A DNA stretch of 64,000 bases from an uncultured Gemmatimonadaceae bacterium (GTDB lineage Bacteria; Gemmatimonadota; Gemmatimonadetes; Gemmatimonadales; Gemmatimonadaceae): the NCBI GenBank assembly GCA_963817955.1, contig CAWFQK010000002.1:224001-288000 (forward strand), in the 5' to 3' direction. This document shows positions 1 to 55,479 of this stretch, one piece after another. Made by a program: the position numbers and the translations under genes. Each line of letters begins with the position of its first letter. The first letter of the stretch is position 1. The notes under the pieces were generated by a model. It did not search any database and was not told the origin of the DNA. It saw only the letters and a list, made by a program, of their open reading frames with translations.

Positions 1-362
1 TCGCCCACCTGTCCAATGAGGTACCTGGTGTGCGAGACGAGCAACACGGACGCCGTCGTGCCCATGCCTTGCTTGTCCGTCTCGGTGATCGTGCGGTCGT
101 GAATGTTCCTGTTCGCCTTGCGCAGCGCATCCTTCACGCGCTCGGCAGCGCCGCGATCACCCAGATCGCGCACGCTGGCCAGCTCCAGCTCGATGATCTG
201 GACTGCCATCTCGCTCGCAACCTCACCGGCGGCGTGCCCGCCCATGCCATCGGCGACGATGAACAACCCGCGATCGATGCCGGCGTTCACGGCATAGTTG
301 TCTTCGTTCCCGGACCGGATCATGCCAACGTCAGTCCGCGCGGCGTGAAGCAGACGCACCAT
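1..362 (-). CDS. PP2C/Stp1-family Ser/Thr protein phosphatase (5' part; runs off window edge)
   Basis: Manual translation from ATG at 362: MVRLLHAARTDVGMIRSGNEDNY...LFIVADGMGGHAAGEVAS...GMGTT; abuts the FHA gene stop at 363. Confidence 0.9.
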   Translation of the reverse strand, partial: MVRLLHAARTDVGMIRSGNEDNYAVNAGIDRGLFIVADGMGGHAAGEVASEMAVQIIELELASVRDLGDRGAAERVKDALRKANRNIHDRTITETDKQGMGTTASVLLVSHTRYLIGQVG

Positions 363-1640
363 TTAGCGATTCAGCAAGAAGAAGCCGGCCGTCGCTGCGA
401 CGACCAGCACTACGACAATCCACACCCACGCGGGGAAGCCAGCTTTGGCGGACAACTGAACCGGCGACGTGCTCGCGACAATAGGCGCCGGCATCGCCAG
501 GGTCTCGCGCAATTTCGAGCCATCCACGCTCGTGATGACGCGCGTCCCCATGGTAGTATCGGCACCGGCGCCATGCGGACGGAAGGCCATCGTCACGCCG
601 CCAAAGCGTACATTTTGAGTGCCATCAAGCCGTCGCTCGGCAGTGATGCGCTGCCCGGCAACATAGGTACCGTTCGTTGAGCCGACGTCCACCAGATACC
701 ATCCGTCATCGCGACGTTGGAGCTTGGCGTGCGTGTCCGAAACACTATCGTCGCTGATTGCGACGTCATTATGCGCGCCTCGACCGATGTGCGCGAGCGG
801 CACGCAGATCTCGAAGATCTTGGCTTTGAACGGACCGTCGCTCGTGATCTCGAGCGTCGCAAACACCGGTCGCTCTTCGCCCACCGACGCGGTCGGCACG
901 ACCGTGGCGGCCGGAACCACCGGCGCCGCTGCAGACGCGGGAGCCGGAGCAGGCTTCGTCGCGGCAGCGGGCTTGGCCACCGTAGCCACCGGAATGTCGG
1001 CGTAGAAACGGAGTTCCTCGGTACCGATCCGAATCACATCGGCGCGCGACAGCATTTGCGTCTTGTCGATGCGCATGCCGTTGACGAACACGCCATTGGC
1101 ACTGAGGTCGCGAATCTCATAACCGCCTGCGACTGGAGCGACTTGAGCATGATTGCGCGACACCTCGTTCTGCGCCACGACCACGCCGCAGCTCGCGTCA
1201 CGACCGATCGAGATTCCGTCGGCCGGTACACTGTATTCCTTGCCGTCGAAGAGTGACACGAGACGCCCACCAGTGGCCGCGGTGGCGCGCGCCGGTCCGG
1301 AGCGTTTTTGCTCCATGGCCGCCACCGTGGTCGCCGATACGAATTGCGTGGCGCCAGCCTTCGAATCCTCGGAGTACAGCAGCTCGCAGCCGCCGATTTC
1401 CACCTTGTCGCCGTGCATCAGCGGCGTCGGTTCGACGAGCGGAATGCCGTTCACCCGCACCGCGCCGGCATCGCCAGTGCGGCGGATGACCGCCCGTGTA
1501 TCATCTGTCACGTCCACGATCGCCTGGACCCCGAGCGCTGCATCGGCATCGACCCGGACATCGACGGCAGCGCCTGCACCCAGCCGATTCGGGCCGGGAC
1601 GCAAGGAATACCGCTGATCGTTGACCTGGATGACCGGCAT
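363..1640 (-). CDS. Multi-FHA-domain protein with C-terminal membrane anchor
   Basis: FHA motifs IGRD...VSRNHA...DLSANGVFVNG and IGRG...VSDTHA...STNGTYVAG, plus a degenerate N-terminal FHA; hydrophobic C-terminus. Confidence 0.85.
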   Translation of the reverse strand: MPVIQVNDQRYSLRPGPNRLGAGAAVDVRVDADAALGVQAIVDVTDDTRAVIRRTGDAGAVRVNGIPLVEPTPLMHGDKVEIGGCELLYSEDSKAGATQFVSATTVAAMEQKRSGPARATAATGGRLVSLFDGKEYSVPADGISIGRDASCGVVVAQNEVSRNHAQVAPVAGGYEIRDLSANGVFVNGMRIDKTQMLSRADVIRIGTEELRFYADIPVATVAKPAAATKPAPAPASAAAPVVPAATVVPTASVGEERPVFATLEITSDGPFKAKIFEICVPLAHIGRGAHNDVAISDDSVSDTHAKLQRRDDGWYLVDVGSTNGTYVAGQRITAERRLDGTQNVRFGGVTMAFRPHGAGADTTMGTRVITSVDGSKLRETLAMPAPIVASTSPVQLSAKAGFPAWVWIVVVLVVAATAGFFLLNR

Positions 1641-1765
1641 GTGAGTGCGCTAGCGCGACGGTCCGAATCGGGATACGGCAGCGCAGGCGAGCCTCGCGAC
1701 GCCGGCGTCGGGGAACGGAGTGACTCCGGCAGAAACTATCCCATCGCCCCTCTGGCTCGCAAGCG

Positions 1766-3604
1766 TCATGCGCCCGCCTGGAGCGCGTCGCGCAGCGCGC
1801 CTGCCTGTAGACGATACAAGCGGTCGTAGAGGCCCCGTTTCGCGAGCAACTGCCTGTGCGTGCCGCGCTCGCGGACTTGGCCATGGTGCAGCACCAGGAT
1901 CTCGTCAGAATCGACGATGGTGCTCAATCGATGTGCAACCGCGATCGTCGTGCGTCCCTGCATCAACACGCCAAGCGCTCGCTGAATGTCCGCCTCGATC
2001 TCGCTGTCCACGGCGCTCGTTGCCTCATCGAGCACGAGCAACGCGGGATCGGCGGCGATGGCGCGCGCGAACGACAGCAATTGTCGCTCGCCAACGCTGA
2101 TCGATGCGCCACGCTCGCCCAGCTCCTGCGCGTATCCGTGCGGCAGACGCCGAATGACGCGATCGGCACCGACGCGCGCCGCCGCTATCGCCACGTCTTC
2201 TTCGGAAATCGGATTCGACAATCGGATGTTGGTCAGGACGTCGCCTGCGAATAGAAAGATGTCTTGCTGAACGTAGCCGATGAGCGCGCGCAGATCGGAG
2301 AGCGACAGATCGCGCACGTCGATGCCATCCACCAGGATGCGGCCGCGCTGTGGATCATAGAAACGGAGAAGCAGGTTGATGATCGTCGTCTTCCCTGCCC
2401 CCGTGTGACCGACGAGCGCGAGCGTCCGGCCAGGCTCGACTATAAAGCTCACGCCCTTCAATACCCACTCCGGCGACACGGACTGGCCTGGATCGCGGGC
2501 GACGTGGCCGAGATCGTACGCGAACCACACATCCTGGAACTCTACCGTCACGCCAGGCCGGTGGAGCGGTCGAACGGTTGAGTGGTCGAGTGAACCCACT
2601 CCTCCTCCTTCCGCAACCGTCGTGTCCAACAGTGTAAAGACACGTTCGCTCGCTGCCATCGCCTGCTGTAACGTGTTGAACTTGTCCGACAGATCCTGGA
2701 GCGGTTGAAAGAATCGGCGCACGAGTTGGAGGAACGCAGCGACCGTGCCCACGGTGAGCGACCCCGCTTGCACGCGGTGCGCGCCGGAGACGATGAGGCT
2801 CGCCAGGGCGATCGACGTCAACACCTCGATGGTCGGGAAATAGAGCGCGTAGTACGTGATCGCATCGAGATTCGCCTGGAGATGGCCGCGATTCAGCTCC
2901 TCGAATCGCTGCCCCTCGGTGGCTTCGCGTCCGAAGAGCTGGACCACGCGCATTCCCGAAATGCGCTCCTGCAGAAAGGAGTTGATGCGCGCAATGCGGG
3001 AGCGGATGTCGCGATACGAGTCGCGCACCTTCGCGCGGAAGACATGCGACGCCCAGCAGACAAACGGAATCACGGCGAACGACGCCAGGGCAAGACGCCA
3101 ATCGGTGGCGAGCATCATCGCGCTGATCGCCAGCAGGGTGAACAGGTCACCGAGTCCCGCCACGACGCCCGCGGTGAACAGCTCGTTCAGCGACTCGACA
3201 TCCGACGTCACGCGCGTCACCAGCCGCCCCACCGGATTGCGGTCGAAGAACACTACCGGCAATCGCTGCACATGCGTGAAGATGTCACGCCGCAGGTCGC
3301 GCATCACCCGCTGGCCGAGGAGACTCGTGAATATCGTCTCGCCATACTGACAGGCAAATGCAATGACGAGCGATGAGCCGAACAGCAGCGCCCACCGAAC
3401 GGCAAGGCCGGTATCGTGCGCTGGCAACGCAATGTCGATGACGCGCTGCGTCATCAGCGGCCCGACGAGCTGCAGCAATCCATCGAGCATCAAACAAGCG
3501 AGCGCCGCGGCCACCAGCCAGCCGTACGGCTTCACATATACGGACAGGCGGCGAACGAGACGGGAATCGTACGCTTTGCCGACGACATCTTCTTCGAGGT
3601 GCAC
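1766..3604 (-). CDS. ABC exporter, fused permease/ATPase (MsbA/MdlB-like)
   Basis: TM domain, Walker A GHTGAGKT, signature ISVGERQ, LVLDEATS, AHRLST. Confidence 0.93.
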   Translation of the reverse strand: MHLEEDVVGKAYDSRLVRRLSVYVKPYGWLVAAALACLMLDGLLQLVGPLMTQRVIDIALPAHDTGLAVRWALLFGSSLVIAFACQYGETIFTSLLGQRVMRDLRRDIFTHVQRLPVVFFDRNPVGRLVTRVTSDVESLNELFTAGVVAGLGDLFTLLAISAMMLATDWRLALASFAVIPFVCWASHVFRAKVRDSYRDIRSRIARINSFLQERISGMRVVQLFGREATEGQRFEELNRGHLQANLDAITYYALYFPTIEVLTSIALASLIVSGAHRVQAGSLTVGTVAAFLQLVRRFFQPLQDLSDKFNTLQQAMAASERVFTLLDTTVAEGGGVGSLDHSTVRPLHRPGVTVEFQDVWFAYDLGHVARDPGQSVSPEWVLKGVSFIVEPGRTLALVGHTGAGKTTIINLLLRFYDPQRGRILVDGIDVRDLSLSDLRALIGYVQQDIFLFAGDVLTNIRLSNPISEEDVAIAAARVGADRVIRRLPHGYAQELGERGASISVGERQLLSFARAIAADPALLVLDEATSAVDSEIEADIQRALGVLMQGRTTIAVAHRLSTIVDSDEILVLHHGQVRERGTHRQLLAKRGLYDRLYRLQAGALRDALQAGA

Positions 3605-46290: not shown

Positions 46291-47652
46291 CTACACCAGT
46301 GGCCCGGCGGCACGGTCGACACCGGCGAGCGCCTTGCGAATTGTGGTACGTCGCGGCCGCGGCACGCCCGCCGCCTCGGCGAACTCGGGCCAGCGCTCGA
46401 CAGCGGCGCTTACCTCCTCCATGATCCCGCGCACGCGCGCGGCAGGAACGGCCCCAACTTCCTGTGCCAGCTCTTGCATACCAGCACGCGTCGGCCGCGC
46501 ACCGTTTCCATTGATGGAGGTCGTGTGCTCACCGTTCATGCCTGCGGAGAACGTGAGATCGTACGCTGGCGAGAGGCACCACTCGCCCACGGCGTTCATC
46601 GTGTACGCGAAGTTCCGCACGTGGTCGTCCCGATTGTGCGCGAGCACATTGAACACCATGCGCCGCACCGCCTCCGCGGCTTCCGCCACACTCTGGGTTA
46701 GCTGTAGGGTCGCGGAGAGGAAGTCCCTATAGTCGCAGGATGGCGTCCTATAGTCGGAGTGGATCAGACCGCCGAGTGTGTGAACATGAACACGCTGCGC
46801 GAAGCCCGGGCCCACGCGATCGAAGCGCCGGATACCGAAGAACCGGCGGCCATCCGGCACCTCGAAGAGAAACGTCGGCGGCATCACGATCCCTGCTGCA
46901 CGAGCCATCGCCGCATACGCTGATTCCACTGCGCCGGCATCAGGTCCATCCGGCTGCGCAGGGAACTTGATGATCCACGGCTCGTAGCCCTCGGGGGTCT
47001 CGAGCGCCCGACCCGCGAGCTCCGGATAGCCACCCGCTACCACCTTGGGCGAACCCCCGCCGGCGTCGTCGGCAAACGCGACAGCAGCCAGCACCTTTGG
47101 ACGCGCCCCACCTGGCGAGCCACCGCCAGCAAGGAGTGCGGGTAACACCTGTTCAGCGACACCCTGATACAGCCGCGCGGCATGGTCGGCCACTTCAGCG
47201 AGTTCGGGTCGCCAGCGCCACTGATCGTTTGGTTCCTCAGCGCGTTCGGCGACGGGAGCAGAACGCGCGGCATCTGCATCCGGATCGAGCTCAATCACGG
47301 GATCGAATGCGAGGGCCCCAATTCCCGATAACCCTACCGCCGCGAGTCGGTCGAGCGGCGTGATCTCGTGTTGGGCGATGCCAAGCCTGCCAAATGCGCG
47401 ATCCTGCAGGAGTCGTCCCCATCCGTCAGGCATCGCATCGAAGAAAATGCCGTGCAGCTGCTCGAAGTCGCGGTCCGGATGCTCCTGAATGCCAGCACGG
47501 CGCTCGAGCGCGAAGGGCGACACCGGCAGCCAGTCCGCCAGGAACTCGGGAGCGAACTCGAAGAAGATGCGTGGGCCATCCGCCGCGAGCGTGCCGAGGG
47601 GTCGAGGGACCGCAGGGTCAAAGACGAGATTGACGCGGAGCCTCCGCATCAC
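46291..47652 (-). CDS. hipA: HipA-family Ser/Thr kinase toxin
   Basis: PDGWGR, SPGGARPK, WIIKFP, RFDR, NRDDHVRNF, LSPAYD. Confidence 0.92.
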   Translation of the reverse strand: MMRRLRVNLVFDPAVPRPLGTLAADGPRIFFEFAPEFLADWLPVSPFALERRAGIQEHPDRDFEQLHGIFFDAMPDGWGRLLQDRAFGRLGIAQHEITPLDRLAAVGLSGIGALAFDPVIELDPDADAARSAPVAERAEEPNDQWRWRPELAEVADHAARLYQGVAEQVLPALLAGGGSPGGARPKVLAAVAFADDAGGGSPKVVAGGYPELAGRALETPEGYEPWIIKFPAQPDGPDAGAVESAYAAMARAAGIVMPPTFLFEVPDGRRFFGIRRFDRVGPGFAQRVHVHTLGGLIHSDYRTPSCDYRDFLSATLQLTQSVAEAAEAVRRMVFNVLAHNRDDHVRNFAYTMNAVGEWCLSPAYDLTFSAGMNGEHTTSINGNGARPTRAGMQELAQEVGAVPAARVRGIMEEVSAAVERWPEFAEAAGVPRPRRTTIRKALAGVDRAAGPLV

Positions 47653-48032
47653 CGTTTCTGGTCTCGCGGCGCGCCTGTCGCAGTCGACGCAGACTCAATT
47701 TCTTGGGCGCGCGCGCGCTGCCGAGGTGCGCGCACACGCGTGGCGGTGGCCCGCGCATCCTCCAGCGCGTCCAAGCTCAGCGCCGCGACCGCCGGCTCGG
47801 CGAACAGAGTCTCCCATTCGGCGAGCGTGCCAAGCGCGAAGGCAATCCGCAGCAGGCTCTCGATGGTGCCCTGACCAGTCTGCTCAAACCGCTTGACAGT
47901 ATCCCTCGAAACCCCGGCCTTTGCCGCGAGAGCCTCGCGACTGAGCCCGCCTGCGATTCGCCGCTGGCGTACGCGCTTGGACATCGACACAGCCACAGAC
48001 AATGGCGTCCGCGAGACGGTGGATATTTTCAC
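47649..48032 (-). CDS. hipB: HipB-like XRE antitoxin
   Basis: RRIAGGLSREALAAKAGVSRDTVKRFEQTG; GTGA coupling to hipA; RBS GAGG. Confidence 0.85.
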   Translation of the reverse strand: MKISTVSRTPLSVAVSMSKRVRQRRIAGGLSREALAAKAGVSRDTVKRFEQTGQGTIESLLRIAFALGTLAEWETLFAEPAVAALSLDALEDARATATRVRAPRQRARAQEIESASTATGAPRDQKR

Positions 48033-48174
48033 CTTTACCTCACTGAGTGAGATGTAACGGCGTAATTTACCGCCTTTAGCGATTATGCGTACCCCAGGCT
48101 GGCCGGCGCGAATAGCCTTCTTCAAGAGTACGGTGACGTGGGATCCACCGCAGTACGGGATCTCATGACCTACA

Positions 48175-50891
48175 TCACGCCTCGGTTCGTAGCGCGACTG
48201 CCGGATCCACACGCGTCGCACGCCAGGCGGGCACCGCCGCGGCAATGCAGGCGACCACAATGAGTACGACGCTGGAGCCGATGATGATCGTCGGGTCGCG
48301 CGGTGAGACGTCGTACAACAGCGGCGTGACCAGGCGGCCGAGTACCAGCGCGAGCACGATGCCGACGCCAATGCCCGTGACCGTAAGCGCGATGCCCGAG
48401 CGGATCACCACCCGTGCCACGTCCGTCGCGCGCGCGCCAAGCGCCATGCGCACGCCAATTTCGTGCGTCCGCCGCGCGGTGCTGTACGTCAAGGCGCTGT
48501 ACACGCCAATGGCCGCCACGAGCAGCGCGAGTCCGGCGAGTGCACTGAAGAGCCAGGCGCCGAGTCGCCACGCGTGGAATCGCGGCGAGAGCATTTCCGA
48601 CATGATGATGATCTGCGGTTTTTGGTCACCACTCCGTCCGCCAGCGATCACCCGGATGGCAGCAGCGACGTCGCCGGTACGGCCAGGCGCAGCACGGACG
48701 GCGATCCACGAGGACCCGAACATGGCGACCGGCGGCGCGCCGACCGGCAGGTAGTACGCCGGCTTGGCTTGCTCGGTTACGGACATGTTCCGGCCGTTCT
48801 CGACGACGCCGACGATCGTATAGCACGGAGTAGTCTTTTTCGTGAATCGTAGGCATTGGCCAATTGCATCGACGCCGGGCCAGAAGATCCGCGCCATCTC
48901 CTCGTTGATCATCACCTCGAAAGGCGCGCGGTCGCCGATGGGTTCCGCGAACACCCGTCCGCGAAGCAGGCGCATGCCCGCGGTCGAGAAGAACGAGGCC
49001 GAAACCGGTGTGACGATCGGGAAAGGCTGGTTTCCATACCGCAGCGAGTCGCCGCTCGTGCGGAACAGGGTCCCGAGGAAGCTGAAGCCCCGCATCGGCG
49101 GATTGCTGACGATGGCCGTGCGCTGCACGTCGGGCAGGCGCCCGAGGCGCGCTTCCAGCTCTCGCGCGTTCGCCATCTCAACGGTGGGTTCGACGCTTGA
49201 AGGCGCGGCGGCCCTCACGAACACGAGCTGGTCGACGTCATAGCCGATTCGCTGCGAGGCGACGTTTTGCAGCGATCGGACAAACAGGCCGGCGCCGATG
49301 ACGAGAACGGCCGCGAGCCCCGACTGCGCAACAACGAGCAGCGAGCGCAGGCGCGACCGCCGTCCCCCACCCTCGCGCGCGCCCGATTTGAGCGCGGCAT
49401 TCAGGTCCGTGCGCGTGGACTGGAGCGCGGGAGCGACGGCGGTTACACACGCCGTCAGCAGCGCGGCAGCGGAGGTGAAGAGGATGATGCGGGCGCCGTG
49501 AACGTCTGGCTGCCAGTGCGCCTCCGGGAGCAGCAGCGCTCGAAGCAGGCCGCTCGCCCACGTTGCCGCCAGGAACGCGCCCGCCGCCGCGAGCGCCGCG
49601 AGCAGAGCGCCGCGAGCAGAGCGCACTCGGCGAACAGCATGCGCGCGAGTCGCGAGCGCGAGATGCCCATGGCGAGGCGCACCGCGATCTCACGCCGCCG
49701 CTCCATGGCTCTCGCGAGCAGGAGGTTCGCGACGTTCGCGCATGCGATCACGAGCACCATCAGCGCGACGACGGCAATGCGGGCGGCGAGAGAGAGTTCC
49801 TGGTCTTGCTTCGCCGGTCCACGCGACTCGATCAGTGAGCCCGGCGCGATGCTGGCGAGCGAATCCGACCGGCGGGCTTCGCGCGCATCGCGGCGGGCTC
49901 CGGTCGTGGCATGCGCCGCAACCTGACGGCTGCTGGTCTCGCGCGCCGGGCGCGCCACTACGCGCAGAAAATACGTGTTGCGCTCCTCGTACCAGGGCGG
50001 TCCCGTCTGCACCGAACTGCGAGCAGAGAACCCTGCGAAGGTGGCCAGCGGTCGCCAGAAGTCCACTTCGTCCAGGTCCACGCCTGTGAAGCCCCTCTCG
50101 GCTACACCGATGATCGTGTTCTGGACGTTGCCCACCCGGAGCTTGCGGCCGATCACGGCGCTGTCGCCGCGGAATCGCCTCTGCCAGTAGTCGTAGCTCA
50201 GCACGAGGGCATATACGGGTTGCGCGAGGCGCTCCTCATCGGGCGCGAACAACCGGCCGAGGGCGGGATGCACGCCGAGCAAGGGGAAATAGCCGGCGTC
50301 CACGAAGGACGAGAACACCTCACCGCCAGAGTCATCGTCGACATTGGTTTTCAAAGGCGGGGCGTAAGCCGTAACGGCGGCAAGCGGGCCGATGGCGTCG
50401 CGAATGGCCCCGTACTTCGGGTAGTTGTACACCGGAATGGCTGGCATGCCGGCGTCGGGATGTTGCGGAATCTCATACAGTCGCAACACACCGTCCGGCT
50501 GCACCACGCCGTCTGGCATCCGGAAGAACACCCGGTCCAGCACCGAAAAGATCGTGGCGTTGGCGCCGAGTCCCGCCGCGAGCGTGAGCACGATGGCGAT
50601 CGTCACGCCTGGCGTTCGGGCGAGCGAGCGCACCCCATACCGCACGTCAGTCAGAAGGTCCTCGATCCAGGCGAGGCGCCGCACGTCACGGTGCCCCTCC
50701 CGCACCTGCTGCACGCCGCCGAAGTGCGCCAGCGCGAGCCGGCGCGCTTCGGCCGCAGGAATCCCGGCGCGCATCTTCTGCTCGGTTTCCATGTCGATGT
50801 GAAACCGGATCTCCTCGTCGAGTGCGGCGTCCGCCATGCGAGGCCTGAGGAGCGCGCTGGCCCTCGCGACTAGCCCACCAAAGGCGCTCAT
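48175..50891 (-). pseudogene. ADOP-type ABC permease frameshifted by a 14-bp tandem duplication
   Basis: 5' half (LDEEIRFH, IACANVANLLLAR) and 3' half in different frames; GAGCGCCGCGAGCA duplicated at 49591-49618. Confidence 0.85.
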
Positions 50892-50892
50892 G

Positions 50893-51090
50893 TCACGCTC
50901 CGCTCGTCGCGAGGATGGATTCGACCGCCTCCACGTAGTGCCGCCAGCTTGCCGTCTCAGCCCCCACGGCTTTGCGGCCCGACGCGGTGAGGCGGTAGTA
51001 CCTGGCGCGCCGATTGTTCTCGCTGGTCCGCCACTCGCTCGCCACCCAGCCCTTCTGCTCCAGCCGCTGGAGCGCCGGATAGAGCGAAGC
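50893..51090 (-). pseudogene. 3' half of a PadR-family regulator (5' end missing)
   Basis: Manual translation [40 protein letters not shown]; not in the ORF track; directly upstream of the ADOP gene. Confidence 0.85.
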
Positions 51091-51600
51091 CTAGGACGCG
51101 GGCAGCGCCGGAAGCGAAGACTGCACTCCGAACGCGTTCCCAAGTCGCGGGTTTTCGCGTGCTTGCTTCAATCCCGTCGTTGCCTCGATGTTCACATCGT
51201 TCATCAGAGCTTGGACATTCAAAGGCGGTAAGTACAATGCACCGTAAAATCCACGACCGCTCAATGCACTGATCGTCTCCCGCGCATAGGGCATGAGAAT
51301 AGACGGCGCGTGGACTTGAACAAATCGCAGAACATCCACGGCCGGACCTTCTCCAACACGCGTGAACACTCCGACGGTCATCACGCGAATTGACTCTGGA
51401 CGCTCGCGCGTCGGCTCGATACCGACTGTGATCGAGACAAGAAATTGTCGATCGTCCATGATCTGCCAATCCCAACCGAAGGTCGCGTGCGCATCGCTGT
51501 TACCACTCAGGAGTTGCTCGCTGTTGCGATGCCCGGTGAAACTCTGCTCCTGCGCAAACACCCTGTCGAGGGTGTAGCCCGACGTAGGCAGTGTGCTCAT
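51091..51600 (-). CDS. SecB-like chaperone of a TAC system
   Basis: beta-rich N-terminus, VGVF, APSILMPYARETISALSGRGFYGALYLPPLNV; ATGA coupling to the antitoxin. Confidence 0.85.
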   Translation of the reverse strand: MSTLPTSGYTLDRVFAQEQSFTGHRNSEQLLSGNSDAHATFGWDWQIMDDRQFLVSITVGIEPTRERPESIRVMTVGVFTRVGEGPAVDVLRFVQVHAPSILMPYARETISALSGRGFYGALYLPPLNVQALMNDVNIEATTGLKQARENPRLGNAFGVQSSLPALPAS

Positions 51601-52205
51601 CCGATTGACTCTCTAAAAGTTCTGCTCTCCGACGAAAGGCGCGTCTCCACCTGCTGCATCGTCGAGGCACGCGCCAGATACGGCTGGATCGGTATGACAT
51701 TCGAACTCGCAACCGGCACGCTATACCCGCGCGGATCGCCCAATGGCACCGTATCCGTCGCTGCCTCGCCGGAATAGGCTGGTGGTAGTTCGACGTTATT
51801 GAGACTCGCCAGATACCGCACGGCACCGGGCACTGCGGCTAACACACGGAGTAACGTCCCAGTTGCGGCGTTCGGAATTACCTGGCCCGACTCCCAACGA
51901 ACATCCGTCTTGGGACCGGTGTTCAGGAGTCTTTCAAACTCCGTTTGAGGAAGACCTAGCCGGATCCGCAAATTTCGAATTTCGAACGGCAGTGGCGGCT
52001 CGCCGTTCTGCCGTGCCACCTCTGACGCTTTCCGATCAGTACCTTCCATTTGCCCAGCGAAATAGTACGTCTCGCCGCACTCGCCGCATCGCACAAACTC
52101 ATCCTCGACAATGACACGCCGACGACCGTACGCGATCTCGCGTGGTTCCCGAACGATTGCGGCTTCGCCAGTGCAGATGGAGCAGATCAAATTTTCACTT
52201 GTCAC
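51597..52205 (-). CDS. mqsA: MqsA-like antitoxin (Zn ribbon + HTH) with C-terminal extension
   Basis: CSIC...CGECGETY, EIRNLRIRLGLPQTEF...RWESG, about 65-70 aa tail. Confidence 0.85.
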   Translation of the reverse strand: MTSENLICSICTGEAAIVREPREIAYGRRRVIVEDEFVRCGECGETYYFAGQMEGTDRKASEVARQNGEPPLPFEIRNLRIRLGLPQTEFERLLNTGPKTDVRWESGQVIPNAATGTLLRVLAAVPGAVRYLASLNNVELPPAYSGEAATDTVPLGDPRGYSVPVASSNVIPIQPYLARASTMQQVETRLSSESRTFRESIG

Positions 52206-52208
52206 GGC

Positions 52209-52547
52209 TTACTTCCGCTTGAATTGAATGACGACGGCGACTGCGCCGTTCGTGAGCTGGAGCTTGATATAGATGCGCGCTCCGAGGTATCCGATGCGAT
52301 AAACGTCCTGCCACAGCCCCTTCGCAGCTGCGACCGGATTGTCAGCCGGCATCGTTTTATGGAAATGAGTCGCAACGTCCAGCTGAGCGATGCAGTCCCT
52401 TATTTGTGGTTCTGAGAACCCGAGGGTCGAGCGCGCCTCATCGGCTGCAAGTCGAGTAATGACGTATTGCCTCGGGTCACCCGACGCGACCTTCGCCTGG
52501 ATAGTCCGCAAATCATACTTCGGCGCCTGTTTGGGTGAGCTAGCCAT
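52209..52547 (-). CDS. mqsR: MqsR-like ribonuclease toxin
   Basis: PKYDL..IQ, ITRLA, FHKTM, WQDVY, IYIKLQ, VVIQFKRK. Confidence 0.85.
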   Translation of the reverse strand: MASSPKQAPKYDLRTIQAKVASGDPRQYVITRLAADEARSTLGFSEPQIRDCIAQLDVATHFHKTMPADNPVAAAKGLWQDVYRIGYLGARIYIKLQLTNGAVAVVIQFKRK

Positions 52548-52864
52548 TGCCAGTCAATGGTAGCATCGTGCTACCTATAAGGCAAGCGACATGCCAGAGT
52601 ATCGGAAGGCAGTCGGGCTGGCTTGAGACACGGCGGTTCTTGCGCTCGCCCGAATCCGCTTCGACGCAGGTGGTGTGCAAGGGCGTATTGCCTGCTGTCG
52701 CCGTGCAGCAGCCACCGCTCTTTCACGGCGCGATAGGTTAAGTTTTCAGTTCGTGTTCGACATCGTCGCGCATGGATTCGCACACGGACGCGAGTTCGAG
52801 ACAATACCGTTGCACTGCCCTGCTGCCGCGCAACACATTGTCCTCGCAAAAGTTGCATCGTTCC

Positions 52865-52937
<73 letters not shown>

Positions 52938-53190
52938 TTTGATGTCAGTCGAATTGAGCAAGTCAGAATGGCGGCCGGATCCCTCGTCAAAAGGTCATCG
53001 AGCGCGACGCCATTTGTGGCCGCCGGCACCTTGTCGCCCCGGCGCGCGTTAGGGAAGCCCCACCGCCGGCGTTCGAGATGCCCGGTTGTCGGCGACCACT
53101 ACGACCGCTCCGTGCCAAATTCACGCCGGTGACCTTGCGACGCGGTAGTCCAGTTGCGAGACTCTGGTCCTGACCCGATCCGGACTCAAT

Positions 53191-54777
53191 ATGCGTCTCA
53201 GCCTCGTTGTCGCCTCGCTCGCCGTTCCGTTCGCCGTCGGAGCCCAGGCTTCCCAGCAGTCCAAACCGACACCGGCGCCCGAGGGGTTCGGCGACGCGTT
53301 CAAGGCTCGGCCCTACGGGAAGGGCTCGATCAAGGTCGGGCCGGAAAAGGGAACCGTCGTCGTCGTGGGCGGCGGATCGATGGGCCCGGAGGTCTACAAG
53401 GCGTTCATCGACGCCGCCGGAGGCCCTGACGCGTTGATCCTCGACGTTCCGAACGCCGGCGGCCAGGATTCGGTGTCTCCCAACGTCGGTGCGCCCTGGC
53501 GTAGCAACGGCGCGAAGAACGTCGTCGTCCTGTTCACCAAGGATCGCAAGATCGCCGACAGCGATTCGTTCACCGCGATCATCAAGAAGGCGGGCGGCGT
53601 GTGGTTCGAGGGCGGGCGGCAGTTCCACATCGTCCAGGACTACGGCGGCACCAAGACCGAAAAAGAGATCATGGCACTGGTCGAGCGCGGCGGCGTGGTC
53701 GGCGGTTCGTCAGCCGGCGCGTCGATCCTCGGCGACTTCATGGTCCGCGGCGCCCCGTCGAACGACAACATGACCATGGATTATCCCGGATATGAGCGTG
53801 CGTTCGGATACCTCAGGAACGTAGGCATTGACCAGCACGTCGTCGCCCGCTCGCGTCTGCCCGACCTCGCCGACTCGATCGTGCCGCGATACAAGGACTT
53901 GCTCGCTATCTCCGAGGACGAGGGCACGGCTTGGGTGATCAAGGGCGACACCGCGAGGATCATCGGACGCAACAAGGCGTTCGCCTACAACGCGAAGGAT
54001 TCGAATGATCCCGGTCTTCCGTTCATCACGCTGCACCCGGGCGACAGGTTCAACCTGAACACCCGCAAGGTGATCAGTCGCGCCATCACGCGGTCGCCGG
54101 TGAAGGAGGACTTCATCAAGTCGATGTTCGCGAAGTACGACGACCCCGCTGCGGGCGGCGCGACTGTTCTCGTCGCCCAGAACGGCGAGGTCTTCATCGA
54201 TCACGCCTTTGGTGTCGCGCAGCAGCCGCGATACATGCCAAAGACCACGCTGCCGCAATTCGACCTCGGCGACATGTCCGCTGTGTTCTCCGAGCTCTGC
54301 GCTTCGATGCCGCCGCAGCGCGGCCGTGGCCCGGCGCAGGCGCCCGATTCCACCGCGGCCGGCGCCGCGACCGCCGGCGCGGGGCGAGGGCGAGGGCGCG
54401 GCGGGCCACCGCCGTCCCTGCTCCAGCAGTGCGTGACGCGGATCTCGGCGGGCATTGGCGCGCACCAGACGTCCGCGCTGGATTCGACCCACGTCCAGTC
54501 GAGCGTCGACGAGATGTATCGACTCGCGCTCATGATGAACCTTCAAAACGCTCAGGCCGACCATTGGTCGGCGGTCTCCTCGACCGCCTGGGTGACCAGC
54601 AGCCACGGCGGCGTCACTCGCCACGCGTCGTACGCCACGGCCGATGGCAAGCGCGGCGCGTTCGTGCTCGTACCCGAGAAGCAGATCTCGATCGTCATTC
54701 TCACCAACGACGCTGGTGCTGACGCCAAGGGCATGGCCGAGAAGATCCTCGACCAGGTGCTGGCGAGCCAGAAATAA
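53191..54777 (+). CDS. Secreted cyanophycinase-like (S51) peptidase fused to a degenerate beta-lactamase-like domain
   Basis: VVGGG, FEGGRQ, GGSSAGA, IDQH; C-terminal VLVAQNGEV...PEKQISIVILTN. Confidence 0.8.
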   Translation: MRLSLVVASLAVPFAVGAQASQQSKPTPAPEGFGDAFKARPYGKGSIKVGPEKGTVVVVGGGSMGPEVYKAFIDAAGGPDALILDVPNAGGQDSVSPNVGAPWRSNGAKNVVVLFTKDRKIADSDSFTAIIKKAGGVWFEGGRQFHIVQDYGGTKTEKEIMALVERGGVVGGSSAGASILGDFMVRGAPSNDNMTMDYPGYERAFGYLRNVGIDQHVVARSRLPDLADSIVPRYKDLLAISEDEGTAWVIKGDTARIIGRNKAFAYNAKDSNDPGLPFITLHPGDRFNLNTRKVISRAITRSPVKEDFIKSMFAKYDDPAAGGATVLVAQNGEVFIDHAFGVAQQPRYMPKTTLPQFDLGDMSAVFSELCASMPPQRGRGPAQAPDSTAAGAATAGAGRGRGRGGPPPSLLQQCVTRISAGIGAHQTSALDSTHVQSSVDEMYRLALMMNLQNAQADHWSAVSSTAWVTSSHGGVTRHASYATADGKRGAFVLVPEKQISIVILTNDAGADAKGMAEKILDQVLASQK

Positions 54778-54917
54778 CGGGTCGGCCTTTATAGTTTTCT
54801 ATTGCTTTGGCGACGTGCACGAAATAGAGATCGGTGCGTACCAGCAACGCCCAGGGTGGCGCCCAATTTCCGACTACCCTTGAGCGCCTCCAATCGGTTG
54901 GCCGGCGGCTTGGTCAG

Positions 54918-55109
54918 ATGACCGAGATCGGCCACCGAGTCTGGCGCTCGGACGACTCATTCGGAACGGCGCTGCACCTCGTTCAACTCGGCGCCACCCC
55001 ACTGGGGGCAAAGCCGCTCAAGGGATTCGGAGGAGCAGGCGTCCGGCGTTTTCGCGTCGCTTCAGAACACCATGCGACCCTGCAAAACAGGGAGGATGGC
55101 CGTGGCTAA
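54918..55109 (+). pseudogene. Internally deleted RelE/ParE (Gp49/DUF891-like) toxin
   Basis: FGTALHLVQLG...AKPLKGFGGAGV followed directly by a C-terminal-like RRFRVASEHHA. Confidence 0.7.
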
Positions 55110-55479
55110 CCGAATGACGAAGAGGAAGAGCGACCCCACGAGCCGTGGCGAGCAACCCGTCACGCCGAGCAGCGGCAACGTATTCGCCGACCTCGACCTT
55201 CCTGACGCCGACGAGTTGTTGGCAAAGGCCGACCTCGTCCACGCAATCCAACAGCTCGTACACGACAGTAAGTTGTCACAACGTGCGGCCGCGACAGTGC
55301 TCGACGTCGCCCAACCAGACTTGTCCAAGCTATTTCGCGGACGACTGGACGGCTTTTCAATCGAGCGACTCGTTCGAATGCTCAACGCTCTCGATCAAGA
55401 CGTGCGAATTGTGGTGCAACCCAAGCCGCGGTCTCGACGTCGAGGAACCGTGCGGACGCTCTTGCGAAAATCGGCATAA
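55102..55479 (+). CDS. XRE (HTH_37/HigA-like) antitoxin
   Basis: SSGNVFADLDLPDA, LSQRAAATVLDVAQPDLSKL, FSIERL; RBS GGAGG. Confidence 0.88.
   Translation: MANRMTKRKSDPTSRGEQPVTPSSGNVFADLDLPDADELLAKADLVHAIQQLVHDSKLSQRAAATVLDVAQPDLSKLFRGRLDGFSIERLVRMLNALDQDVRIVVQPKPRSRRRGTVRTLLRKSA

Follow-up and report, generated by a model that had tools for sequence, protein, structure and literature searches.

The window analysed here, a stretch of 64,000 nucleotides (nt) from the genome of an uncultured Gemmatimonadaceae bacterium (assembly GCA_963817955.1, contig CAWFQK010000002.1, positions 224,001 to 288,000 of the forward strand), very probably carries an intact, horizontally acquired toxin–antitoxin–chaperone (TAC) operon of the MqsRA type, alias MqsRAC. 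The three genes lie on the minus strand. An mqsR-like toxin gene (52209..52547, ATG start) encodes 112 amino acids (aa), an mqsA-like antitoxin gene (51597..52205, GTG start) 202 aa and a gene for a SecB-like chaperone (51091..51600, ATG start) 169 aa. The first two genes are separated by 3 nt (TAA-gcc-GTG), and the second and third share an ATGA stop/start overlap. Judged from this layout translation is coupled across the three genes, with the toxin first, the antitoxin second and the chaperone last. An initial annotation made from the bare letters had described three tightly coupled genes with exactly this gap and overlap and had identified them as an intact triad of MqsR, tailed MqsA and SecB-like protein. 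The open reading frames (ORFs) are found as described, and the identification is borne out by Pfam and NCBIfam matches above cut-off. The Pfam matches were judged against the curated cut-offs, which all three proteins exceed. At the sequence level the locus shows the gene order, the protein families, the key residues, the antitoxin tail, the chaperone fold and the co-occurrence of tail and chaperone that characterize MqsRAC.

The toxin matches the Pfam family MqsR_toxin (PF15723) with 58.8 bits against a cut-off of 26.2. Its residues K64, Q80, Y93 and K110 align with K56, Q68, Y81 and K96 of Escherichia coli MqsR (chain 3hi2_B), four positions at which mutation is reported to lower toxicity (PMC2791442), the variants K56A and Y81A being described as catalytically dead (PMC9636575). 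By this alignment the toxin retains the catalytic residues of MqsR.

The antitoxin matches the Pfam family MqsA_antitoxin (PF15731) with 38.3 bits against a cut-off of 30, and its residues 8-131 match the NCBIfam model TIGR03830 of the MqsA family (66.4 against a cut-off of 61.8). Aligned with 17 relatives, the cysteines C8, C11, C40 and C43 do not vary; they correspond to C3, C6, C37 and C40 of E. coli MqsA, the zinc ligands of that protein according to its structural description (PMC2791442). They are followed by an XRE-type helix-turn-helix (HTH) DNA-binding domain at residues 72-132 (51810..51992, minus strand), which is matched by HTH_3 and HTH_31 and aligns with HigA2 and MqsA chains. 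In an AlphaFold model calculated from 9 sequences, residues 1-146 are folded as a beta-ribbon plus helices, with the helices at residues 73-135, and the predicted local distance difference test score (pLDDT) lies below 50 at residues 147-167 and 183-202 and rises slightly at about 168-182. According to the model the antitoxin is thus composed of a four-cysteine zinc ribbon, an XRE-type HTH domain and a disordered tail of 70 aa. The extra tail had already been pointed out in the initial annotation, and about 70 residues do extend past the end of the TIGR03830 match. It comprises the 70 residues after L132 (residues 133-202; 51600..51809, minus strand) and contains the stretch quoted at the time. 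Lying beyond the MqsA family models and being of low pLDDT, this C-terminal tail is a candidate chaperone-addiction (ChAD) element.

The third protein matches the SecB family of Pfam (PF02556) with 35.7 bits against a cut-off of 26. Its model has a pLDDT of 90, and the top Foldseek matches are the SecB proteins of E. coli and Haemophilus influenzae with E values of about 1e-8 (1qyn, 1fx3); at rank 16 follows Rv1957 of Mycobacterium tuberculosis in complex with a ChAD peptide (5mtw), with 15% identity in the structural alignment. The proposed SecB fold, for which profile and structure searches had been suggested as a check, is therefore confirmed by PF02556 and Foldseek alike. One could then think of an ordinary two-gene MqsRA system which happens to adjoin a general SecB gene of the export type, and the match to the SecB family and fold is what such an arrangement would give. 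But against the NCBIfam SecB equivalogs the protein scores only 17-37 bits where cut-offs of 103-277 apply (36.6 at best, for a model whose cut-off is 180; TIGR00809 gives 34.4 against 102.8), so that judged by these models the third protein is SecB-like in fold and not an export-type SecB. Further, this lineage does not have SecB as a housekeeping gene: in the order PF02556 is matched in no more than 8 of 81 genomes, this genome included; in the genus the chaperone is matched in no more than 2 of 31, namely in this genome and by one 22%-identical protein; and the sole other SecB match of this genome belongs to a second three-gene module. Together with the ATGA overlap between antitoxin and chaperone gene and with the co-variation described next, this sporadic distribution leaves an export-type SecB beside a two-gene system hardly credible.

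For this comparison a scan with one genome per species was used. It comprised 74 loci, mostly from metagenome-assembled genomes of Gemmatimonadota and Longimicrobiales, with some from Actinomycetota, Acidobacteriota and others. An antitoxin ORF could be called in 71 of them, the other three lying at contig ends or having no in-frame ORF, and the tail length was counted from the residue aligned with L132. With tails of at least 46 aa a SecB-like gene overlaps or abuts the antitoxin stop codon in 16 of 19 loci, and with shorter tails in 1 of 52; the cut at 46 aa was placed after the gap between 39 and 46 aa had been seen. When 50 downstream ORFs were searched with Pfam, 13 SecB matches were obtained at E <=0.01, of which 7 exceed the cut-off. 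A local SecB-like profile, run against all six-frame ORFs, matched in 17 loci; it was built from the 13 Pfam-positive ORFs and the two SecB-like genes of this genome, hence those 13 match by construction, and two of the four additional loci match weakly. In this set of relatives, a long tail and a downstream SecB-like gene go together. The tail sequences themselves vary widely. The tail could be a protease degron or a segment binding some other partner, independent of the SecB-like protein and no ChAD at all, which would suit its disorder and the lack of sequence relationship to most other tails. However, long tails are found almost only where a SecB-like gene follows, and the ChAD regions known so far are likewise reported to have no sequence similarity to each other (PMC5105189). 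We therefore consider a chaperone-independent tail very unlikely.

Within the tail one motif, NVIPIQPYL (residues 169-177; 51675..51701, minus strand), is shared with relatives and coincides with the only local rise of pLDDT in the modelled tail. It reads DVIPIGPYL in the closest antitoxin relative, P0002 (57% identical and also 202 aa long), and KVIPIEPYL in P0084, and a looser form is present in about six sequences (P0003, P0006, P0121, P0124 and P0142 among them). Conservation of the tail from end to end is limited to P0002, with which the antitoxin has the aromatic residues 144, 161 and 176 in common. An exhaustive HMMER search with the antitoxin gave 1172 representatives at E <=0.001; among the best 150 of these the strict motif occurs twice, and 133 have at least 175 aa, long MqsA relatives being common. 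A complex model of four SecB-like chains and the tail residues 133-202, both given as alignments, reached scores of 0.13 and 0.09 (mark 0.32) and was counted neither for nor against an interaction.

A perfect palindrome, GGTAGCA-cga-TGCTACC (52559..52575), is located 12 nt upstream of the toxin ATG and is a candidate MqsA operator. In its exact form it occurs once in the window, and when three mismatches are allowed the count in the window equals the chance expectation. Within the window alone the palindrome would be weak evidence; across the relatives it appears to be anything but weak. The core GTAGC-N5-GCTAC is present in 56 of the 74 related loci, compared with a mean of 0.4 loci in 100 shuffles, and in 50 of these 56 it is found at most 600 nt upstream of the antitoxin start, mostly at 300-380 nt, just before a toxin-sized gene. 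This genome has only 2 exact matches, that of the operon itself and one other. From these comparisons the palindrome is likely to be the MqsA operator, and it looks like a family-wide operator unlike the AACCT-N3-AGGTT site of E. coli.

The palindrome also allows a promoter to be proposed. Anchored on it, 57 sequences give the consensus TTGc-(N)-TG-GTAGCAT.aTGCTAC-CaT. A -35-like hexamer TTGCCT (52580..52585, minus strand) can be placed accordingly, TTGC being made up of the majority bases in the 57 promoters, and a -10-like hexamer TACCAT (52557..52562, minus strand) would follow after 17 nt, overlapping the right arm of the palindrome and ending 9 nt before the ATG. We infer that the antitoxin autorepresses the operon through an operator overlapping the -10 box, and that the transcript begins a few bases before the ATG with a very short or absent leader, which would explain the missing Shine–Dalgarno sequence. 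In a scan for consensus promoters and terminators none of the former was called, and the one terminator-like site, within the SecB-like gene, is fewer than chance would give. In a literature search combining MqsA and GGTAGCA, judged by titles and the beginnings of abstracts, nothing on this site was found. As a separate observation, the palindrome precedes MqsR/MqsA-like pairs in several phyla, with the chaperone gene present or absent (loci L027-L097 among them).

The initial annotation had further supposed, by eye, that the locus is less GC-rich than its flanks, had proposed a GC profile as a check and had taken the module for horizontally acquired. The profile shows a dip over about 51000-53000. 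The operon has a GC content of 0.574, while the window as a whole has 0.648 and the contigs have 0.633-0.647. In 500-nt segments between 51000 and 52999 the values are 0.566-0.590; they rise to 0.64-0.72 on the left side and to 0.62-0.68 on the right side. At third codon positions the three genes have 0.61-0.66, versus 0.79-0.86 in long flanking genes. Directly after the stop codon of the SecB-like gene and in the same frame begins a 3′ fragment of a PadR gene of 65 codons (50893..51090, minus strand), which covers only positions 32-73 of the 75 positions of the Pfam PadR model. Seven PadR orthologues of full length from the genus show 75-82% identity to the fragment, and nothing between 51000 and 53200 of the window matches the 46 conserved residues at their N-termini. 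The PadR gene therefore seems to be without its first approximately 46 codons and its promoter. This loss would have gone along with the arrival of the module, because the fragment abuts the SecB-like stop codon and the N-terminal 46 residues remain unmatched. The GC dip, the sporadic distribution of the module and the PadR gene truncated at the junction fit horizontal acquisition, and in this respect, too, the earlier proposal is upheld.

Two further likenesses to PadR were followed and rejected. Upstream of the toxin one PadR paralogue matches weakly at 52741..52616 (E 0.056), a possible 5′ remnant to which neither the seven closer orthologues nor Pfam give any match. The C-terminus of the SecB-like protein seemed to resemble PadR, but it is of a kind that the homologue P0153 has as well. 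To the eye, cttcgct-tccggcgct in the final codons of the SecB-like gene (51094..51113) is similar to cttcgct-cta-tccggcgct in the first codons of the PadR fragment (51065..51089); this likeness could be microhomology at the junction or chance.

The adjacency to a tRNA-Lys gene, which had also been remarked upon, holds only in the literal sense. The tRNA-Lys(ttt) gene (52865..52937, plus strand) is the only one in the genome and lies 317 nt upstream of the toxin start, and it was the sole match in an Rfam scan of 50800-53300. Classic integration targeted to a tRNA gene is not supported, because the module is situated 5′ of the tRNA and neither an integrase nor a flanking repeat accompanies it: a search for flanking direct or inverted repeats gave short two-copy matches only, none of them bracketing the module, and the 14 ORFs of the window scanned between 43 and 59 kb include no phage, integrase, transposase or other defence gene. 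The neighbours of the module are other toxin–antitoxin modules, permeases and a peptidase. Attempts to reconstruct the empty site with the left flank led to PadR–permease loci without tRNA-Lys, and no uninterrupted site was found. With the right flank as query, a 528-aa gene (Peptidase_S51-like) and tRNA-Lys (region 52840..54300 of the window) are seen to be apart in all genomes of the genus that match both (loci L012-L022), and the gene arrangement around tRNA-Lys appears from this comparison to be specific to this genome.

Downstream of the PadR fragment a permease of the MacB_PCD/FtsX type (48175..50891) is split into two frames, its N-terminal half ending at about 49605 and its C-terminal half starting at about 49473. 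This is either a frameshifted pseudogene, pointing to decay, or an indel of the assembly. The possibility thus has to be considered that the module itself is a decaying or domesticated remnant, its genes being intact by chance after a recent insertion and the module being silent or the antitoxin alone being used as a regulator. The disturbed region with its truncated PadR gene and two-frame permease, a degenerate Gp49-like/HTH_37 pair 2.3 kb away and the toxin gene without a Shine–Dalgarno sequence would agree with this. Yet, compared with their closest relatives, the three ORFs lack nothing in length, toxin and antitoxin retain the catalytic and the zinc residues, and promoter and operator are intact and fit the family consensus. 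A remnant is therefore unlikely, and an intact TAC operon is the reading which we prefer.

How this operon might work can be outlined by analogy with the TACs of M. tuberculosis and Vibrio cholerae. Because of the tail, freshly synthesised antitoxin would tend to aggregate and to be degraded by proteases. The SecB-like chaperone would bind the tail, probably around the aromatic and hydrophobic patches Y161 and VIPIQPYL, and binding would let the antitoxin fold and hold the toxin via its zinc-ribbon domain. The folded antitoxin would then repress the operon at the GGTAGCA-N3-TGCTACC operator overlapping the -10 box. Once the chaperone is titrated away or the antitoxin degraded, the MqsR-like RNase would be freed and would cleave mRNA, so that translation and growth would stop.

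The same parts could also serve in abortive-infection phage defence, a structural protein of the phage titrating the sensor chaperone off the tail and thereby freeing the toxin. There is published precedent. MqsRAC of E. coli C496_10 is reported to protect against phage T2 and CmdTAC against T4 (bioRxiv 10.1101/2024.02.24.581848, for the former citing Sala 2017 and Vassallo 2022), and HigC is described in the same source as recognizing both ChAD and gpV of phage lambda through aromatic patterns. In our locus the aromatic residues 144, 161 and 176 of the tail are conserved, and the chaperone is matched weakly by the PADLOC model PD-T4-9_C (E 9.1e-5). However, toxin and antitoxin are without any PADLOC match, and no phage, integrase or other defence gene accompanies the module among the 14 scanned ORFs. 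A role in phage defence is thus possible but doubtful. Taken together with the other features one may go further and picture an active abortive-infection system of a Gemmatimonadota-like host, whose chaperone reads a Y161...VIPIQPYL pattern occurring also on a structural protein of a phage. In that case the tail would imitate the trigger as a decoy and represent a new specificity class of ChAD/sensor, and GGTAGCA-N3-TGCTACC would be a second, undescribed recognition code of MqsA across several phyla. We regard this combined picture as rather improbable.

Returning to the interpretation of the locus as an intact TAC operon, several points weigh against it. That the toxin is toxic and is neutralised, that the pair depends on the chaperone and that the antitoxin binds DNA are predictions from sequence and models. 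Judged by published descriptions, the tail is unlike any characterised ChAD, and its strict motif recurs in only 2 of the best 150 relatives. The profile behind the association of tail and chaperone gene was built partly from loci which it later scored, and of the 13 downstream ORFs matched by Pfam only 7 score above its cut-off. Three long-tailed loci have no downstream SecB-like gene (L047, whose ORF runs through masked bases, L081 and L098), and one short-tailed locus, L052, has one. No Shine–Dalgarno sequence is visible before the toxin ATG, and the pair of -35-like and -10-like hexamers agrees with the consensus in 8 of 12 positions where the scan needs 9. Finally, the assembly is 94% complete and a neighbouring gene is in two frames; sequence errors may be present. 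A search for sequencing runs listed no RNA dataset, and the DNA datasets, of small share, all came from one study. In metagenome contigs a first scan gave no close relatives and a second scan 4 distant loci.

Other modules of related kind were noticed in the genome. The second three-gene module mentioned above (locus L002, G000:C4:1375686-1378943, ORFs 360..806, ~865..1284 and 1294..1797) begins with the gene for a protein of 148 aa, followed by those for an XRE-type HTH protein, extended at its C-terminus, and for a SecB-like protein, which matches PF02556 with 35.4 bits. Searches of Pfam and of PDB sequences gave nothing for the 148-aa protein, and its sole NCBIfam match has to be put down to noise (13.7 bits, the cut-off being 491); none of its 22 homologues carries a functional name or a Pfam domain. 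From its gene content this module may be a TAC whose toxin represents an undescribed family. Just downstream of the module a HicB-like/HicA pair is situated. In the window itself a HipBA module (46291..48371) lies about 3.5 kb from the TAC operon, with a HipA kinase toxin gene (HipA_C and Couple_hipA) preceded by an HTH HipB-like ORF. On the other side an antitoxin-like gene of the HTH_37 type (55072..55479) and an ORF of 91 aa overlap each other (54834..55479 in all); the ORF is matched only faintly as Gp49/HigB-like (E 0.11) and may be a HigB-type toxin gene in decay.

Among known systems the locus shares with E. coli MqsRA the catalytic residues, the four-cysteine zinc ribbon with HTH domain, the toxin-first order and a promoter palindrome with a 3-nt spacer (PMC2791442; PMC4894380). 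E. coli MqsA, in contrast, is described as a protein of 131 aa that is structured throughout, with neither tail nor chaperone appearing in that description (PMC2791442), and its reported operator AACCT-N3-AGGTT (PMC4894380) has the same geometry as GGTAGCA-N3-TGCTACC but different half-sites. The antitoxin studied here, with 202 aa where two-gene systems have about 130-150 aa and with its gene coupled to a SecB-like gene, does not belong to the two-gene MqsRA type. With CmdTAC/PD-T4-9 (PMC11618068) the locus has in common a TA pair under the control of a SecB-like chaperone, as well as the weak PADLOC match of the latter; the CmdT toxin, however, is presented as an ADP-ribosyltransferase, whereas here an MqsR-type RNase is encoded and toxin and antitoxin escape the PADLOC models. 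HigBA1-SecB(TA) of M. tuberculosis (Rv1955-Rv1957), for which the structural basis of ChAD binding is known (PMC6377645), resembles our locus, as far as the published accounts go, in its dedicated SecB-like chaperone, in a genome without export SecB and in a disordered antitoxin tail (PMC5105189; PMC6377645; PDB 5mtw). It differs in that toxin and antitoxin are HigB and HigA instead of MqsR and MqsA and in that the chaperones are only 15% identical.

TACs of the MqsRA, HigBA and HicAB types with SecB-like chaperones have been published, and addiction by the ChAD tail has been reported to be transferable (PMC5105189; PMC6377645). For MqsRA of V. cholerae RC385 (VCRC385_03678/03679) it is reported that the pair needs its own chaperone and that the tail residues 136-176 transfer this dependence (Bordes et al. 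2016, PMC5105189). The present locus has the same composition of MqsR-type toxin, MqsA-type antitoxin with C-terminal extension and SecB-like chaperone. Its tail is longer with 70 aa and, judged by description, seemingly unrelated, its host is GC-rich with nearest relatives in Gemmatimonadota, and it is known from genes and models. MqsRAC of E. coli C496_10, likened here by description, likewise has the three-part architecture with an MqsR-like toxin; there a phenotype against T2 is stated to have been demonstrated, whereas no phage link is visible at our locus. Since MqsRA TACs are thus on record from both strains and long-tailed MqsA relatives are common, the expectation that this would be the best candidate for a new system in the window does not stand. 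The MqsR–MqsA–SecB architecture is already published, the current picture of TAC systems is unchanged, and the locus adds a member from a little-studied lineage of soil or sediment. It would extend the range of chaperone-addicted MqsRA modules to an environmental lineage, GC-rich and poorly studied, which has two separate SecB-linked modules and no export SecB. To what is known of these systems it contributes a short conserved tail motif as a candidate chaperone-binding site, a clean association of tail length and chaperone gene across the relatives and a conserved putative operator unlike the MqsA site of E. coli.

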